Positions 1-20,225 of a DNA stretch of 20,708 nt are shown one piece after another (positions within the stretch are counted from its first letter, which is position 1; the number at the start of each line of letters is the position of its first letter). The notes below the pieces were generated by a model, which worked only from the letters and a program-made list of their open reading frames with translations, had not been told where the DNA came from and searched no databases. Location of the stretch: the IMG/VR virus record IMGVR_UViG_3300045988_020424. One strand, 5' to 3'. Source of the DNA: a virus. Taxonomy: Duplodnaviria; Heunggongvirae; Uroviricota; Caudoviricetes. The position numbers were made by a program, and so were the translations under genes.

Positions 1-105
1 AGGTTTCATTGGGGTATACGGTTCGCCGTTGTGATTGACAACATAAAGCTCTGCGCCGTGGAATGGCACGTTGATAGTAGATACTGCTGTTGCTATACTC
101 GTCAT
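1..105 (-). CDS. Antirepressor (Ant-like) N-terminal fragment; gene continues beyond the window start
   Basis: Minus-strand ATG at 103-105 with the frame open to the window edge. Translation MTSIATAVSTINVPFHGAELYVVNHNGEPYTPMKP shows the F-x-G-x-x-L-x-V-V...G-E-P-Y pattern I associate with phage antirepressor N-terminal domains. It lies directly downstream of the Arc-like gene, as in P22 immI. RBS is weak. Confidence 0.5.
   Translation of the reverse strand, partial: MTSIATAVSTINVPFHGAELYVVNHNGEPYTPMKP
71..99 (+). promoter_or_regulatory. Candidate sigma70 promoter for an antisense small RNA (TTGATA, 17-bp spacer, TATACT)
   Basis: -35 TTGATA at 71-76 and -10 TATACT at 94-99 with a 17-bp spacer. 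It sits inside the 5' end of the ant-like gene on the opposite strand, and predicts a start near 106. Confidence 0.3.
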
Positions 106-180
106 GTCGTTAATTCCTATACGTAGTTTTACGATACTGAAGCCCTGACGGTCTGGCCACCGTGGGGCTTCGCTGTTTTA
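106..180 (+). ncRNA. Candidate antisense small RNA (analogous to P22 sar) covering the ant RBS and the arc-ant junction
   Basis: Predicted transcript from the promoter above to a GC-rich hairpin (GAAGCCC 139-145 pairing with GGGCTTC 165-171, plus inner TGACGG/CCGT pairing) followed by GCTGTTTTA. The region is complementary to the ant RBS on the minus strand. Inferred by analogy; no expression evidence. Confidence 0.3.
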
Positions 181-516: not shown

Positions 517-530
517 TGTGACATGTCACG
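517..530. repeat. Copy 1 of 14-bp motif CGTGACATGTCACA (minus-strand orientation; 12-bp perfect palindrome GTGACATGTCAC at 518-529)
   Basis: Read directly from the sequence. It contains the TGA stop codon of the membrane-protein gene (526-528) and abuts the terminator hairpin at 501-516. Confidence 0.85.
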
Positions 531-822
531 TCCCTTTTCTGAATGATAGCCATTCGAAAAATGATGACATTCCACCGCAGACAATAGCAAAGATGATCCC
601 ACCAAAGAAGAGAAGGCCAGCCTGCCACCACTCCCACCGCCATACATCCACAGCGCCAACCATACCAACAATCGCTCCAACAAATGGAATATAGCTCACG
701 ATGAAAGCAATGGGGGCTGCAATTATCCAGTGCAATCCCCACCATGATTCAAGCCCAGCCATAATTGCTGCCAACTGAAAAAGACCAACGACGATATAAA
801 CAATGAATCCTATAGCTTGCAT
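526..822 (-). CDS. Small integral membrane protein (98 aa, about 3 predicted TM helices), function unknown; candidate superinfection-exclusion or accessory protein
   Basis: Start re-placed to the ATG at 820-822 with RBS AGGTGA and a 5-nt spacer. Protein MQAIGFIVYIVVGLFQLAAIMAGL... is strongly hydrophobic. Its C-terminus is not highly charged, which argues against a canonical holin. Position between ejection-protein genes and the immI-like genes parallels sieA in P22. Confidence 0.6.
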   Translation of the reverse strand: MQAIGFIVYIVVGLFQLAAIMAGLESWWGLHWIIAAPIAFIVSYIPFVGAIVGMVGAVDVWRWEWWQAGLLFFGGIIFAIVCGGMSSFFEWLSFRKGT

Positions 823-1018
823 GTAGTCACCTAATTTACCCAGTAAAAATAAGAGGCCTCCCCTCAATAAGGCTTGCAACAAGAACTACTCCCTGCACAA
901 CAAAGATGAACCAGCAAATAGCTTGAGTCTGAGGGTTAAGAAAATATTTGTAGCGGTCAATAAATAACAATCCACCAGAAATTATCACACTCAAAATAAT
1001 TAAAAACACAACACTTCC

Positions 1019-3493
1019 TTATTGCGGAGTGACATCCTGTGGTCGCCACCAGTATGTCTGGTTAAACTCTTTCTTCGAACGTTGCTCCATTTTACGCAAA
1101 TAGCCTGGTGAAAAATACTCCTGCATCTGGTTAAAGATCATGTGATCGAGAGCCGCCTTCAAGTACCAGAGATTCGCACCAGGCATCAAACCTTTCCCCA
1201 GCTTCACCAGATCACCACCAGTCTGCTCACTCTTCCCTTCCACAGCATTTAACGGTATGCCCTGAGCAATCTTCACTACGTCATCAACCAGACCAGCTAC
1301 CGGGCCAAGCATCGACGCCAGCGCGCCGCTTCCGTACCTAGTGTGATCTGACAATAAAAAGTCACCGTAAAGGCCAAGACCACCACCTTTCAGTAGAGCA
1401 CCAAGCCAGAATTTTGCGGCATCTTCTCCTGTCATCTCTCGAGGATTACGACCAGACGCAAGGTCGTTAAGTTGCTGCGACAAAGCGCCAAGAATGGTCG
1501 TACTGGCAATAAACGTCGCAATATATGCCGCACGCCCACCAGCAGACGGCATACCCATAGCGCGTGACCAGTGACGCATAACAACCGAGATAGGGAACGA
1601 TTTAAACAGGAAAACACTTCTCGTTAATTCACCTTTCCATGTTCCACGCTGAATACCAGAACCGGTTATCAGTTGCTCACGTGCTCCCGGTGTAATAACA
1701 GCCATATCAACTTCTTCAGTTACGGCACCGAGCAGTTTACGCATTGCCTCAAATTTCACGCGTTCAGGCTCACCAAGATGTTTAACTGCTGAATCAGGGA
1801 TACGCATAATGCTTTCCGGTGTCAGCATCGTATTATTACCGTTCCCCCAGTCCTCCTGTTTCGCCAGCTTCCATACGCTCCAGTCTGTGTCAGTAATCCC
1901 TTTGCTTTTCAGGATACGAAAATCAGAGTCATCGAGGCTACGAAGGTCTGGTGTCCGTGACACTACTTCTCCCAGGCTTCCCATCATGGTTACGCCATAG
2001 GCGCGCTTGTGCGCATCTGACCATGCTGTAAGCCCACTGACACGCATTACCGCCGTTGCCGCCCAACGAGACACTGACGGCCCCATATTATCCATCGCCC
2101 AGCGGTTAACGCTGCCAAGTAGAGATTCCATCGCCAGACCAGCGCGGCGCGCCCGCGCAAGTTCTGTACGGTTCGTTGGGTCCATAGCTTCAAGCTGGTT
2201 GCGGAATAACTGGTTCATTGGAAGGTTGGTAACCTTCGCAGACAGATACATGGTTCCAAGATCAGAGAACGATGACAGCAACGCGGATCCGAGTCTGCTG
2301 GCAACCAGCCAGTTGCGGATATTGTCAGACCATCGCGCGATGTGCGGATTCGCTACAGGCTGTGTCTTTCCGGAAATAAAGTTGTACAGATTCTCTGTGT
2401 TGTTCGCCAGCCGCTCGACTTTACCGGTTTTACTCGGGTTAGCTGTTGCCGTTTCTGCCTTCACCTGATCAAGAAGAGAGCGGAAAACATGATCGGGGTT
2501 TGGGCCATATGTTTCCACCAGTGCAATATCTTTACTGATACCTTCCAGGTGACCGACCATGATTTCCCATAGAGAGCGATCGCCATAAAGTTGCTGATAT
2601 TGCAGATAGGAATCTGCATCTTTGAAATGTATCTGTCGTGATGCATTACCCCGGTTAGCACGTGCGCCGGAAATTCGCATTCCGGTATCAGTAAGCTTAT
2701 TCAGCCCACCAGTAGCGATCGTGTTATAAGCCTCTCCAAGAAATGCAGACAACTCGGCATCGTTCATCAGTTGTCCATCGACTCGGGTATAATATTTGCG
2801 ATCCAGCTTACCTATAACATCGCTAACCCACTTATCCTTTGATACCGCCCCAACCTTTTCCATAGAATGATGTTGAGGGAGCCCCCAGTTTTCGAGATAG
2901 CCAATGTCCCCACCAGCATCATTAAACCGGCGGCGCAGTAGCTCTGTCACTTCTCTCCACGCCTTAGCACCTTTTCTTGCTTTAGCATTGCCAGTATTTT
3001 GCCCTCGCATTTCATATACCAGGTCACGCACGCCAGCTTCATCTTCAAACAGGCCAAAAAAGCGAGGATCAACTGCTTCAAATGCCTCCTGCAATTGACT
3101 CAATGCATAATCACGAGTGGCTTTTGTTCTGGATTCAACAGAGAGGAAATTCGATTTACCGTCTGCATTAAAAGCAATAGTACGGTTAAGAGCGCCAAGT
3201 TTCCCATCAGCCCCTTGATAGCTATTGATAAATTTATCCAATCTCTGACGTGCGGCTATAGTGAGGGCCACACGACGTTTCTTTAATGCCGCTTCTCGCT
3301 GTAATTCTTCAGATGCCAATTGTGCTGCTCGATATAGCCGCTCTGATTCGGAAAGTTGTCGCCACGACATAGGGTCATCACGAGCAATGGAGCGCATATT
3401 TCGATAAATGCGGTCTTCAATGTTCTGTATTTCTCGCGCCGTTAACATGCGCTGCGCCGCCTGCTGAACCGCTTGTATACATTCCTGTCTCAT
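1019..3493 (-). CDS. Large virion internal / ejection (core) protein, 824 aa
   Basis: Long ORF with ATG at 3491-3493, packed 5 nt after the stop of the upstream gene. Third of three consecutive large proteins after the tail tubular genes, a position analogous to T7 gp15/gp16 or P22 ejection proteins. Function is inferred from position only. Confidence 0.8.
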   Translation of the reverse strand: MRQECIQAVQQAAQRMLTAREIQNIEDRIYRNMRSIARDDPMSWRQLSESERLYRAAQLASEELQREAALKKRRVALTIAARQRLDKFINSYQGADGKLGALNRTIAFNADGKSNFLSVESRTKATRDYALSQLQEAFEAVDPRFFGLFEDEAGVRDLVYEMRGQNTGNAKARKGAKAWREVTELLRRRFNDAGGDIGYLENWGLPQHHSMEKVGAVSKDKWVSDVIGKLDRKYYTRVDGQLMNDAELSAFLGEAYNTIATGGLNKLTDTGMRISGARANRGNASRQIHFKDADSYLQYQQLYGDRSLWEIMVGHLEGISKDIALVETYGPNPDHVFRSLLDQVKAETATANPSKTGKVERLANNTENLYNFISGKTQPVANPHIARWSDNIRNWLVASRLGSALLSSFSDLGTMYLSAKVTNLPMNQLFRNQLEAMDPTNRTELARARRAGLAMESLLGSVNRWAMDNMGPSVSRWAATAVMRVSGLTAWSDAHKRAYGVTMMGSLGEVVSRTPDLRSLDDSDFRILKSKGITDTDWSVWKLAKQEDWGNGNNTMLTPESIMRIPDSAVKHLGEPERVKFEAMRKLLGAVTEEVDMAVITPGAREQLITGSGIQRGTWKGELTRSVFLFKSFPISVVMRHWSRAMGMPSAGGRAAYIATFIASTTILGALSQQLNDLASGRNPREMTGEDAAKFWLGALLKGGGLGLYGDFLLSDHTRYGSGALASMLGPVAGLVDDVVKIAQGIPLNAVEGKSEQTGGDLVKLGKGLMPGANLWYLKAALDHMIFNQMQEYFSPGYLRKMEQRSKKEFNQTYWWRPQDVTPQ

Positions 3494-3498
3494 TTAAT

Positions 3499-5301
3499 TT
3501 AACCTCTCAAGAAACACGCCACAGCGACATCAAACAGGCTGGAATCCTGTATTGCCTGCTCACTTTCCCTGTTCGCTTCATCCAGTGCTTCACGCGCACT
3601 GCGCGATTGTGGATTACCATCATCATCCAGCACGGTGATTATCATGTCAGGTGATTCAAGCAGCGAGTCTTCAGCTATGCGCAGATCAATATCTCCTGCC
3701 GGATCTGCCATCATTTTTTGTTCTGTCTGTTGCAATATCTTACCGGGCTCAAAAGGAGCTACTTCTTCTGGCGTCCTGACCTCTGCTGTTTTATAGAATG
3801 AAACAGCCTGAGCATTAAGTTCACTTTCTGCCTGCTGTCGTCGTGCCAGTTCTGCTCGAGCTTCAAAAAACTGACCTCCAGGCTCGTGCGGCGCCAACGC
3901 GTTACGAGAAAATTCCAGGCGTTCTTGTGCCTGCCGGATTCGTTGGTCAATATCGCGAAGTCTGGCCTGTTTATCTGATCGAGCACGAGATAAAGCCTTA
4001 CCGCTACCGGTTGGCTCTTCTGCAAGAATTTGTGCGCGCTGTTCAGTGAGATTTTCAATAATTCGTTGGCTATTAGCGATTTCAGACTGGTAAACCTTTC
4101 TATCGCCACGCGACAAAAGCTGCGCGGCCTGTTCTTCAAGCAACCGATTTTCTATAGCGCGCGCCGTTACTCCATCATCTACAGATGACAGAGCCTCATT
4201 AACTGCCTGAGACAGCAGACTCTTGCGCCCAGGAATTTCACTGAAAGATGCAGACTCAACAATGCTGGCAACGTCTACAGGTCTCCCCTGGCTAACATCA
4301 GACATGGCTTTTCGCAGAGCCTGAATGTGCGAATTACGCGAAAGCACGTTGATCGGAACGCCGGGAGCAATATCAATTTCAGCATGATGAGCGGCATTCG
4401 CCGCCAGTGCAGCATCAATATCAACTGGTGAAAAATTTGGTGCGCTTGTAGACTCGCCGCGAGAGTTAATAAATCTGCCGACACCACCAAACGCCACCCC
4501 AAGAACAGCATCAATAGCAATTGCCTGTCGATCCAACACATCATACTGGTTAGCCATTTCGCTATAGCCACCATCACGAAGCGTTTTTGCAGTAAGCCCA
4601 CGCTGTGCCATACCGAACGCAATATTTGTACCTGCGGCATAGGCAATATCTGGCGTTGCACGTATTGCTGTTGCTGCGGCGCGTCGCACTGAACTTTCAC
4701 CCGTCCGCGCAAGCTGAGCCGCCACACCTTCCGCCAGCGCACCACCAGCACGTAACCCGAGGCTCATAGGGATCAGTGTTCCGGCACCAGCAGTAATACC
4801 CTGCACTAATCCCGCTTCCTGCGCCGTCCTGAAATCAACACCCTGTGCTGTCAACCGTTCAAACTCAGAAAAACCCTGTAGAGAAGTTACCGCCGCAGCA
4901 CCTCCGACCGGACCACCGAGCGTTGTACCGACAACAGCCTGCCCGCCCATATCGAACAACCCATAAAGGACCTGCCCGGCGGTTCCGGTTGTCGCGGCAT
5001 CAGGCGTCAGCCGCTTAACCTGCTGCTCTGCTAGTTTTCTCTGCTCAGCAATGTATGAAACTGAAGTGTCATTGAGCGAGGTGTTTTCGTTAACAAGCTG
5101 AGCAATCGGGGATACGATTTTATCCATCCCTGCCCATAGCAACTGATCTGGCTTTGCCACCAGCCCGGAGTACAAACCAGACAATGCCGCTCCTACAGCA
5201 TTGTCGAAAAAACCAACATCGCTGTTAAAGCCAACTGGATTTGATGCTGCTTCGTCAAGCTGCTGATTCTGGTTTACTGGATTAAGGCCAAAGTAACTCA
5301 T
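3499..5301 (-). CDS. Virion internal / ejection (core) protein, 600 aa, Ala/Gly-rich
   Basis: ATG at 5299-5301 overlaps the upstream stop (ATGA coupling). Protein has Gly/Ala-rich N-terminal half and charged coiled-coil-like C-terminal half. Function by position. Confidence 0.8.
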   Translation of the reverse strand: MSYFGLNPVNQNQQLDEAASNPVGFNSDVGFFDNAVGAALSGLYSGLVAKPDQLLWAGMDKIVSPIAQLVNENTSLNDTSVSYIAEQRKLAEQQVKRLTPDAATTGTAGQVLYGLFDMGGQAVVGTTLGGPVGGAAAVTSLQGFSEFERLTAQGVDFRTAQEAGLVQGITAGAGTLIPMSLGLRAGGALAEGVAAQLARTGESSVRRAAATAIRATPDIAYAAGTNIAFGMAQRGLTAKTLRDGGYSEMANQYDVLDRQAIAIDAVLGVAFGGVGRFINSRGESTSAPNFSPVDIDAALAANAAHHAEIDIAPGVPINVLSRNSHIQALRKAMSDVSQGRPVDVASIVESASFSEIPGRKSLLSQAVNEALSSVDDGVTARAIENRLLEEQAAQLLSRGDRKVYQSEIANSQRIIENLTEQRAQILAEEPTGSGKALSRARSDKQARLRDIDQRIRQAQERLEFSRNALAPHEPGGQFFEARAELARRQQAESELNAQAVSFYKTAEVRTPEEVAPFEPGKILQQTEQKMMADPAGDIDLRIAEDSLLESPDMIITVLDDDGNPQSRSAREALDEANRESEQAIQDSSLFDVAVACFLRG

Positions 5302-14486: not shown

Positions 14487-14783
14487 TCACTCCTGTTCAC
14501 TGGCCTCTTTGGCCATCTTCAAATACTGTTCAGGGCAATGCGCCATAACGCGCTGAAACAGTTCCAGCGCCAGATTGCGTTGCCCCTCATTAAATGCCAT
14601 TGCCATAGCATCCATCGGAGAGATAGCGGAAAACACCCGGCCTTTCTCCAGCACCGACCAGACAACGCGACGCCCCTGTTCACTGCTCATGACAAAGCGA
14701 ATGTCATCAATTTCACGCTGTGCCATGTCACGTTGCTTACGGGCGTTTTCTTCTTTCAGTTGATCGTCTTCGTAATCTGTCAT
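14487..14783 (-). CDS. Hypothetical small protein (98 aa) between portal and scaffold
   Basis: ATG at 14781-14783 overlaps the portal stop (ATGA); its stop is 2 nt from the scaffold start. Charged, helical-looking sequence. Confidence 0.7.
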   Translation of the reverse strand: MTDYEDDQLKEENARKQRDMAQREIDDIRFVMSSEQGRRVVWSVLEKGRVFSAISPMDAMAMAFNEGQRNLALELFQRVMAHCPEQYLKMAKEASEQE

Positions 14784-17107: not shown

Positions 17108-17184
17108 GTGGCATTAGCTCAGTTGGACAGAGCAACCGCCTTCTAAGCGGTTGGTCGCAGGTTCGAATCCTGCATGCCACGCCA
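17108..17184 (+). tRNA. tRNA-Arg (anticodon TCT, reads AGA), 77 nt with encoded CCA
   Basis: Manual fold: acceptor GTGGCAT/ATGCCAC, D-stem GCTC/GAGC, anticodon stem ACCGC/GCGGT, loop CTTCTAA (U33, anticodon TCT, A37), variable loop TGGTC, T-stem GCAGG/CCTGC, T-loop TTCGAAT, discriminator G, CCA. D-arm and T-arm match E. coli argU as I recall it, with different acceptor and anticodon stems. Confidence 0.9.
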
Positions 17185-17807: not shown

Positions 17808-17821
17808 CGTGACATGTCACA
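17808..17821. repeat. Copy 2 of 14-bp motif CGTGACATGTCACA (plus orientation)
   Basis: Read directly from the sequence. Lies 4 nt after the moron stop codon and 3 nt before the terminator hairpin. Confidence 0.85.
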
Positions 17822-20211: not shown

Positions 20212-20225
20212 CGTGACATGTCACA
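20212..20225. repeat. Copy 3 of 14-bp motif CGTGACATGTCACA (plus orientation)
   Basis: Read directly from the sequence. It contains the TGA stop (20221-20223) of the 112-aa gene and sits immediately upstream of the RBS of the 70-aa gene. Confidence 0.85.

Follow-up and report, generated by a model that had tools for sequence, protein, structure and literature searches.

HK97 gp15, the product of a lambdoid moron, is an inner-membrane protein encoded within the late region that blocks DNA entry. The immunity proteins of pore-forming colicins are about 100–180 amino acids (aa) long and consist almost entirely of membrane helices, with three transmembrane (TM) segments for the E1/Ia type and four for the A type. 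They neutralise an incoming channel-former via helix–helix contact, and their genes adjoin the gene of the membrane-active protein. SieA of phage P22 is an inner-membrane protein of 162/164 aa with three predicted TM segments and a conserved cytoplasmic motif, FxRYPxEAxxFNK, near its C-terminus; it prevents the injection of DNA, and mutations that allow escape lie in the ejection proteins gp16 and gp20 (PMC10883804). Here we describe a locus in a 20,708-nucleotide (nt) stretch of viral DNA (IMG/VR record IMGVR_UViG_3300045988_020424, Caudoviricetes; the whole stretch is referred to as the window), where a gene for a hydrophobic protein of 98 aa follows a virion-core gene. A preliminary description of this DNA had compared the gene to sieA and suggested that it may be a prophage-expressed exclusion or membrane-defence factor.

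The window is 98–100% identical to genomes of Uetakevirus, that is, epsilon15/phiV10-like temperate podoviruses of E. coli (e.g., phiv142-3, HEMP4, and YDC107_2). Its anatomy indicates, with high confidence, that the locus is a two-gene cassette of membrane-protein cargo (526–1009, minus strand) forming the 3′ end of the virion-core operon in such a podovirus. Every structural gene of the window is carried by the minus strand. The last large gene of the core operon encodes an 824-aa homologue of epsilon15 gp17 (hereafter gp17), which is 98.7% identical to phiV10 gp20. It is preceded by genes for proteins of 600 and 862 aa, and RefSeq places a 'T7 gp14 family virion core protein' upstream. Since this upstream set consists of internal core proteins, the earlier labelling of the 824-aa gene as ejection-type is reasonable.

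Databases already list the 98-aa gene, both as a hypothetical protein and as a PHROG of unknown function. Residues 1–98 of the protein matched profile positions 1–98 of 98 of PHROG 3075 with an E-value of 1.6e-54, and the NCBI pipeline (RefSeq/PGAP) calls the identical coding sequence, WP_001147904.1. The earlier view of the product as a small polytopic membrane protein is borne out. Compared with Klebsiella phages, the ratio of nonsynonymous to synonymous substitution rates (dN/dS) was about 0.02 for this gene, and dN was 0.04–0.06; dN for gp17 was higher, at about 0.10. The G+C content (GC) of the 98-aa gene is about 50%, like that of gp17. Scans of the 98-aa protein and of its upstream neighbour (a 57-aa protein, described next) against Pfam, NCBIfam, and PADLOC returned nothing usable, and no PADLOC defence model matched either protein, or the Arc-like protein encoded farther downstream, at E ≤ 1. 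It may be noted that the 98-aa gene, which corresponds to orf12 of phiv142-3, was not among the serum-up-regulated genes in the expression paper on that phage, which reports only up-regulated ones and so does not bear on basal expression.

The preliminary description had regarded the 196 base pairs (bp) between gp17 and the 98-aa gene (823–1018) as an AT-rich spacer and upstream region. The length is indeed exactly 196 bp, and the GC is only 38–40% as against about 49% nearby; however, the interval is neither spacer nor upstream regulatory sequence, as it holds a gene of its own. This open reading frame (ORF) encodes 57 aa that form two hydrophobic helices joined via a short basic loop. Its GTG lies 4 nt past the Shine-Dalgarno sequence AAGGAAG, and it ends 13 nt ahead of the ATG of the 98-aa gene. 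In Klebsiella phage BUCT711, the same ORF has a TTG start, with AAGGGGGA at the matching Shine-Dalgarno place. When compared with three Klebsiella-type sequences, the dN/dS of the ORF was 0.19–0.25, while the other two frames of the identical DNA gave 1.4–2.0. It is clear that both the 57-aa and the 98-aa genes are real and under purifying selection.

RefSeq PGAP and most GenBank phage records leave the 57-aa ORF unannotated. In phiv142-3, part of it is hidden under an over-extended, 118-aa call for the next gene (Orf12, with a TTG start). We rejected this longer version of the 98-aa gene because it overlaps the 57-aa gene, and because all homologues and the PHROG profile start with MQAIG. Separately, a terminator-like hairpin at 850–866, at the 3′ end of the 57-aa gene, was considered as an attenuator and rejected, its z-score against shuffled sequence being +1.0.

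The two genes follow closely upon gp17: the 57-aa gene begins 9 nt, and the 98-aa gene 13 nt, after the preceding stop codon. No sigma-70-like site was found on the minus strand between 1500 and 823 by a consensus scan, the only kind of promoter scan made there. Between the 57-aa and 98-aa genes, the consensus scan revealed no promoter-like site, and the shuffle test no significant terminator. Downstream, the 98-aa gene ends as had been described earlier, at a palindrome (GTGACATGTCAC, 518–529) followed by a terminator consisting of a hairpin at 500–517 and a T-run; none of 200 shuffled sequences matched the fold of this hairpin. On the simplest reading of this arrangement, a single late transcript would span gp17 and the 57-aa and 98-aa genes and end at the 500–517 terminator. 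Expression from the prophage, as had been proposed, is not indicated by the anatomy, because the gene is placed on the same strand as the core operon, lacks a promoter-like site, and shares the terminator of that operon.

We examined how the cassette is distributed among genomes. Of 5,426 complete E. coli genomes, 216 carry it. Among 108 fetched loci, which are mostly near-identical E. coli and Klebsiella prophages, 91 have the 98-aa gene downstream of, and co-oriented with, a gp17-like gene. As in epsilon15-like prophages, it directly follows the last large core protein in distant prophages (Cronobacter, Salmonella, and Serratia among them), and the small protein is much better conserved there than the core protein ahead of it: the respective identities were 61% versus 24% for Cronobacter, 54% versus 26% for Salmonella, and 49% versus 29% for a phage with a 909-aa core protein. 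In Serratia prophages, the homologue stands after T7_gp14-type cores of 918 and 1129 aa. Copies of the 98-aa protein that are 94–100% identical were found behind core proteins that are only 24–27% identical.

In contrast, no member of PHROG 3075 is present in epsilon15 or phiV10. The slot is occupied in epsilon15 by the 64-aa gp18 (PHROG 29212) and in phiV10 by the 46-aa gp21 (PHROG 7892), both with two TM segments; phiV10, ZX5, and PAS61 match the window in the flanks alone. Like the cassette genes, gp18 and gp21 lie directly after gp17/gp20 on the same strand, encode small hydrophobic proteins of unknown function, and are followed by the palindrome and a terminator. They belong, however, to other PHROG families with no evident homology, and their two-helix architecture is closer to that of the 57-aa ORF. 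Since the slot can be filled by other small membrane proteins, as in epsilon15 and phiV10, the 98-aa gene is dispensable cargo. In IMG/VR relatives, the interval between gp17 and the 98-aa gene holds a membrane protein of 57, 54, or 103 aa, or a signal-peptide protein of 123 or 175 aa, or is empty; these occupants are unrelated. Examples of such slot contents, a 176-aa protein also among them, were seen at the fetched loci L067, L069, L082, L100 (~3450–4000), and L101 (6453–6983).

The 98-aa gene also occurs apart from gp17. One homologue is an independent unit adjoining the integrase at a prophage end. A 70%-identical copy was found in a lambdoid siphovirus prophage with a GpJ-type tail tip, located beside chromosomal pepN (L111, 5801–6297). 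A 47-aa ORF ahead of this copy ends in PGSLERYQRRAE, the C-terminal signature of the Cronobacter-type gp17 homologue, and is therefore a recombination scar from a podovirus donor. Downstream of the 70%-identical copy, the prophage has a convergent DUF2335 gene, an arrangement shared with Klebsiella phage BUCT711. Taken with the distribution above, this makes the end of the core operon a place where epsilon15-like phages exchange small envelope proteins.

The comparison with P22 SieA gave a mixed result. Like SieA, the 98-aa protein is a small polytopic inner-membrane protein of a temperate podovirus, carried by only some relatives, and its gene occupies the same map interval, from the last ejection/core gene to the arc-sar-ant immI region. 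The positional part of the earlier parallel thus stood, with the gp17-like gene at 1019–3493 on one side and immI at 1–345 on the other. The rest did not. The P22 record shows sieA on the minus strand, with gene 16 on one side and mnt/arc/ant on the other; it is opposite in strand to gene 16 and has its own annotated promoter. P22 sieA is expressed in the lysogen. The 98-aa gene, by contrast, runs in the direction of the core operon, and no promoter-like site precedes it. The two proteins also differ in length (162–164 versus 98 aa). When a profile of 34 family sequences was aligned to SieA with hhalign, the probability was 0.4% over 14 aligned columns. The FxRYPxEAxxFNK motif was absent from the 98-aa sequence and from either family alignment, and no match was obtained to any PHROG annotated as superinfection exclusion. 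Because orientation, promoter, size, motif, and homology all differ, the 98-aa protein is not of the SieA family, and the analogy is positional only.

The 98-aa protein has three hydrophobic segments (approximately residues 4–24, 32–58, and 66–88), and about 78% of its residues are hydrophobic. Its C-terminus, FRKGT, is weakly charged; the tail past the last helix comprises about 10 residues, two of them basic, against a family mean of 2.6 Lys plus Arg (K+R). An AlphaFold2 model built with the family alignment had a mean confidence (pLDDT) of 90.9 and showed helices at 2–28, 32–42, 46–59, and 65–97. The model splits the 27-residue middle segment into two short helices (32–42 and 46–59) at a conserved Y-x-P. 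Among 34 family members, K+R per sequence was 0.44 for the N-terminus, 0.03 for loop 1, 0.21 for loop 2, and 2.59 for the C-terminus. This charge distribution favours an N-in/C-in protein with a central helical hairpin over a plain three-pass, N-out/C-in arrangement. Hence, of the earlier description as a 3-TM protein, the three hydrophobic segments hold good, but the three-pass topology is uncertain, as both the break in the AlphaFold2 model and the charge bias point to the hairpin.

Conserved positions in the family are G13, Q16, A19, G23, W27/G29, Y44, P46, G49, G53, G56-A57, W61, W63, Q67-A68, and L71-F72-F73. These make up small-residue faces of the kind typical of tight helix packing, one buried glutamine, and two Trp-rich loops. 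No relative of the protein was found among solved structures.

A word-indexed search for close relatives of the 98-aa protein yielded 52, all 'hypothetical' and from Enterobacterales. A hidden Markov model search returned 749 clusters with E ≤ 1e-3, of which 320 had E ≤ 1e-10; in the 749-cluster set, no family member carried a name or a Pfam domain. Most members are stand-alone proteins of about 100 aa, and some are fused to DUF805, RDD, or MORN repeats. These fusion partners are uninformative on function, and a literature search on DUF805 and phage gave nothing relevant. One chromosomal homologue, on a marine bacterial contig, is arranged in the order purM-purN-homologue-DUF805. Two distant chromosomal homologues, one of them from Buttiauxella, stand beside genes for UmuD (Peptidase_S24) and a UmuC/IMS polymerase (L018, 2146–4285; L103, 7001–10417), and an SRAP gene is also present at one of these two loci. 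The UmuD/UmuC neighbours hint that part of the family sits in an SOS-linked or mobile-element setting.

The features of the locus and of the region downstream are collected in Table 1. The immI-like genes lie downstream of the 98-aa gene and consist of the Arc-like gene, the sar RNA, and ant. The Arc-like region is a 98.9% DNA match to the 'Arc-like repressor / anti-repressor Ant' of TL-2011b, and a promoter-like site for the sar side is present at 71–99 on the plus strand. As the sar RNA lies between the Arc-like gene and ant, this Uetakevirus carries an immI module of the P22/TL-2011b type. No mnt gene is present. In phiv142-3 and similar relatives, Bro-N/antirepressor and toxin–antitoxin genes lie on the other strand instead of the immI module. 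Elsewhere in the window, a tRNA-Arg gene (anticodon TCT) at 17108–17184 on the plus strand lies between the structural and terminase regions, opposite in strand to the late genes.

Table 1. Features at the end of the virion-core operon and in the adjoining immI region (positions in the window).
Feature	Position	Strand	Basis
Antirepressor (ant), 5′ end; runs off the window	1–113	−	Match to ant of TL-2011b and CUS-3; sequence reading
sar antisense RNA	107–174	+	Rfam RF00262, full length, 44.8 bits (gathering score 43)
Arc-like repressor, 55 aa; ATG at 345	178–345	−	PHROG 228 'Arc-like repressor', E 2.9e-5
Rho-independent terminator at the end of the core operon; stem-loop 500–517, T-run 492–499	492–517	−	Fold −17.2 kcal/mol, z −3.43
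Perfect 12-bp palindrome GTGACATGTCAC; overlaps the stop codon of the 98-aa gene	518–529		Sequence
98-aa polytopic inner-membrane protein (PHROG 3075; RefSeq WP_001147904.1)	526–822	−	ATG start, ORF list, profile match
Shine-Dalgarno AGGTGA of the 98-aa gene; 4 nt before the ATG, within the 13-nt intergenic gap	827–832	−	Sequence reading; identical in BUCT711
57-aa protein with two hydrophobic helices; GTG start	836–1009	−	ORF; kept in BUCT711 and ~70 IMG/VR loci; dN/dS
Shine-Dalgarno AAGGAAG of the 57-aa ORF; overlaps the TAA stop of the core gene	1014–1020	−	Sequence reading
824-aa virion core/ejection-type protein (homologue of epsilon15 gp17, phiV10 gp20)	1019–3493	−	PHROG 684 'virion structural protein', full length

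The palindrome at the end of the 98-aa gene recurs. It is found after the homologous slot in epsilon15, phiV10, and BUCT711, and in 83 of the 108 fetched loci. Within the window, exact copies are present at 518–529, 17809–17820, and 20213–20224, against a chance expectation of about 0.001, and a copy with one mismatch lies at 14720–14731. In epsilon15 (L011), it occurs three times (2142, 19517, and 39612), at places equivalent to those of the window copies. The copies overlap or closely follow the last stop codon of a transcription unit, and two of the three in the window stand directly upstream of a rho-independent terminator. The sequence is unlike the annotated repressor operators of epsilon15 (ATTACCnnnnGGTAAT). 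Possibly it binds a regulator, accompanies terminators as an associated element, or marks module boundaries. A plus-strand terminator-like hairpin is also present at 430–448 (AAGCCCGCGCTGCGGGCTT then TTTTGTGT), in the stretch that separates the operon terminator from the Arc-like gene. No plus-strand gene of the window ends at this hairpin; it may be a leftover of a convergent gene arrangement seen in relatives.

As to the role of the 98-aa protein, we place first, as a tentative choice, a putative exclusion or immunity-type function at the inner membrane. It was ranked so because the ejection-gene neighbourhood recurs, sieA offers a precedent at the same map position, the slot is variable and envelope-directed, and the protein has helix-packing motifs. 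In such a scheme, the 57-aa and 98-aa proteins would be made from the late polycistronic mRNA (in a lysogen, only through read-through or an undetected promoter) and would become inserted into the inner membrane; there, the 98-aa protein would adopt an N-in/C-in topology with its two Trp-rich loops facing the periplasm. It might then act by helix–helix contacts through G13-x2-Q16-x2-A19-x3-G23 and P46-x2-G49-x3-G53-x2-G56-A57, its most likely effect being that the entry of incoming phage DNA is blocked or disturbed at the inner-membrane step. It would thus be a functional analogue, and not a family member, of SieA, Imm, HK97 gp15, or the pore-forming-colicin immunity proteins. With lambdoid morons such as HK97 gp15, the cassette shares the character of an extra gene amid conserved late genes, a factor-independent terminator, and a patchy, horizontally exchanged distribution; it differs in that the consensus scan found no promoter half, that base composition deviates for the 57-aa gene only, and that there is no homology. 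The colicin immunity proteins offer an analogy of mechanism only, no Pfam colicin-immunity family matching the 98-aa protein at E ≤ 1. Several points weigh against the exclusion role. No homology ties the family to exclusion, the PADLOC, Pfam, and NCBIfam scans having given no match. Classical exclusion genes need prophage expression, as against the same-strand placement without a detectable promoter seen here. Purifying selection this strong (dN/dS 0.02) fits a conserved biochemical role better than an arms-race factor, and so do the chromosomal homologues in housekeeping contexts and the fusions to DUF805, RDD, or MORN. The near-identical copies behind very different cores, and in a siphovirus, speak against a specific interaction with a cognate ejection protein. 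Finally, the alternative genes of the slot match only PHROGs of unknown function or nothing at all, so that guilt by association is uninformative.

It is possible, and nearly as likely as exclusion, that the protein is a general membrane-physiology protein, carried as fitness or lysogenic-conversion cargo and acting like its chromosomal relatives (possibly with DUF805/RDD-type proteins), with no direct role in exclusion. The 749 clusters, many of them stand-alone chromosomal genes, the purM-purN-homologue-DUF805 arrangement, the fusions, and the two homologues beside SRAP/UmuD/UmuC-like genes agree with it. It also accounts better for the extreme conservation (dN/dS 0.02; 49–61% identity where gp17 retains 24–29%) and for the lack of dependence on a given type of ejection machinery. 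On the other hand, it reduces the repeated placement after ejection genes in several podovirus lineages to a permissive insertion site, and it explains little, since DUF805 and RDD are themselves without known function. A factor of late lysis timing, i.e., a holin, antiholin, or holin modulator working alongside a separate lysis cassette, appears unlikely. The late-operon position, the small polytopic protein, and a weak Pfam similarity to Phage_holin_5_2 (E 0.027) would suit it, and class I holins (lambda S type) and Phage_holin_5_2 likewise have about 100 aa, three hydrophobic segments, and a place in the phage late region. However, that similarity, the best Pfam hit, scored 15.2 bits, far short of the 29.2 required by the family, no holin PHROG matched at E ≤ 1, and the Uetakevirus lysis cassette is complete elsewhere, beyond the tailspike gene (a 3-TM membrane protein, holin, endolysin, and spanins). 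The gene is not beside an endolysin, it is absent from epsilon15 and phiV10, and homologues occur in non-phage chromosomes; the protein lacks the charged C-terminal tail of class I holins, having a short, weakly charged one, and its predicted N-in/C-in topology with a central hairpin differs from theirs. The earlier statement that it is not a canonical holin is thus upheld. A partner of the core or ejection proteins, whether it forms part of the virion or serves as an assembly or self-protection factor shielding the producer cell from newly made membrane-active core proteins, is more improbable still. The tight downstream linkage to the last core protein in many podovirus prophages, and the co-transcription that the operon anatomy suggests, would fit such a partner; but it is missing from epsilon15 and phiV10 despite their near-identical core proteins, a 94–100% identical protein stands behind cores of 24–27% identity, and the protein is also present in the siphovirus prophage and in bacterial chromosomes. 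Moreover, as about 78% of the residues are hydrophobic, co-translational membrane insertion would be expected rather than packaging. That the gene is a true, prophage-expressed member of the SieA family is barely credible: the shared interval and the membrane location are set against the hhalign result, the length, the missing motif, the opposite orientation, and the want of its own promoter. Returning to exclusion, a broader proposal, which we regard as doubtful, is that the protein founds an unrecognised, widespread family with a TM/helical-hairpin/TM architecture, taken up time and again by temperate phages as a general barrier against the entry of foreign DNA at the inner membrane, irrespective of the incoming ejection machinery. 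About 4% of E. coli genomes would then carry this block, and the adjoining slot would be a hotspot of envelope-targeted exclusion factors.

Small membrane-protein cargo in the late region of a temperate phage is an already known kind of element, and the prophage type is also well known. What is new here is the hidden, conserved gene for the 57-aa membrane protein, the evidence for the exchange slot, the size of the family with its links to DUF805 and RDD, and the demonstration that the likeness to sieA is one of position. Regardless of function, the missed 57-aa gene in RefSeq/GenBank and the exchange site at the end of the core operon both stand. If the 98-aa protein does block phage entry, it would represent a new exclusion family, common in E. 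coli and Klebsiella prophages, which would bear on the host range of phages in therapy; and several hundred clusters of unnamed bacterial membrane proteins would thereby gain a function.

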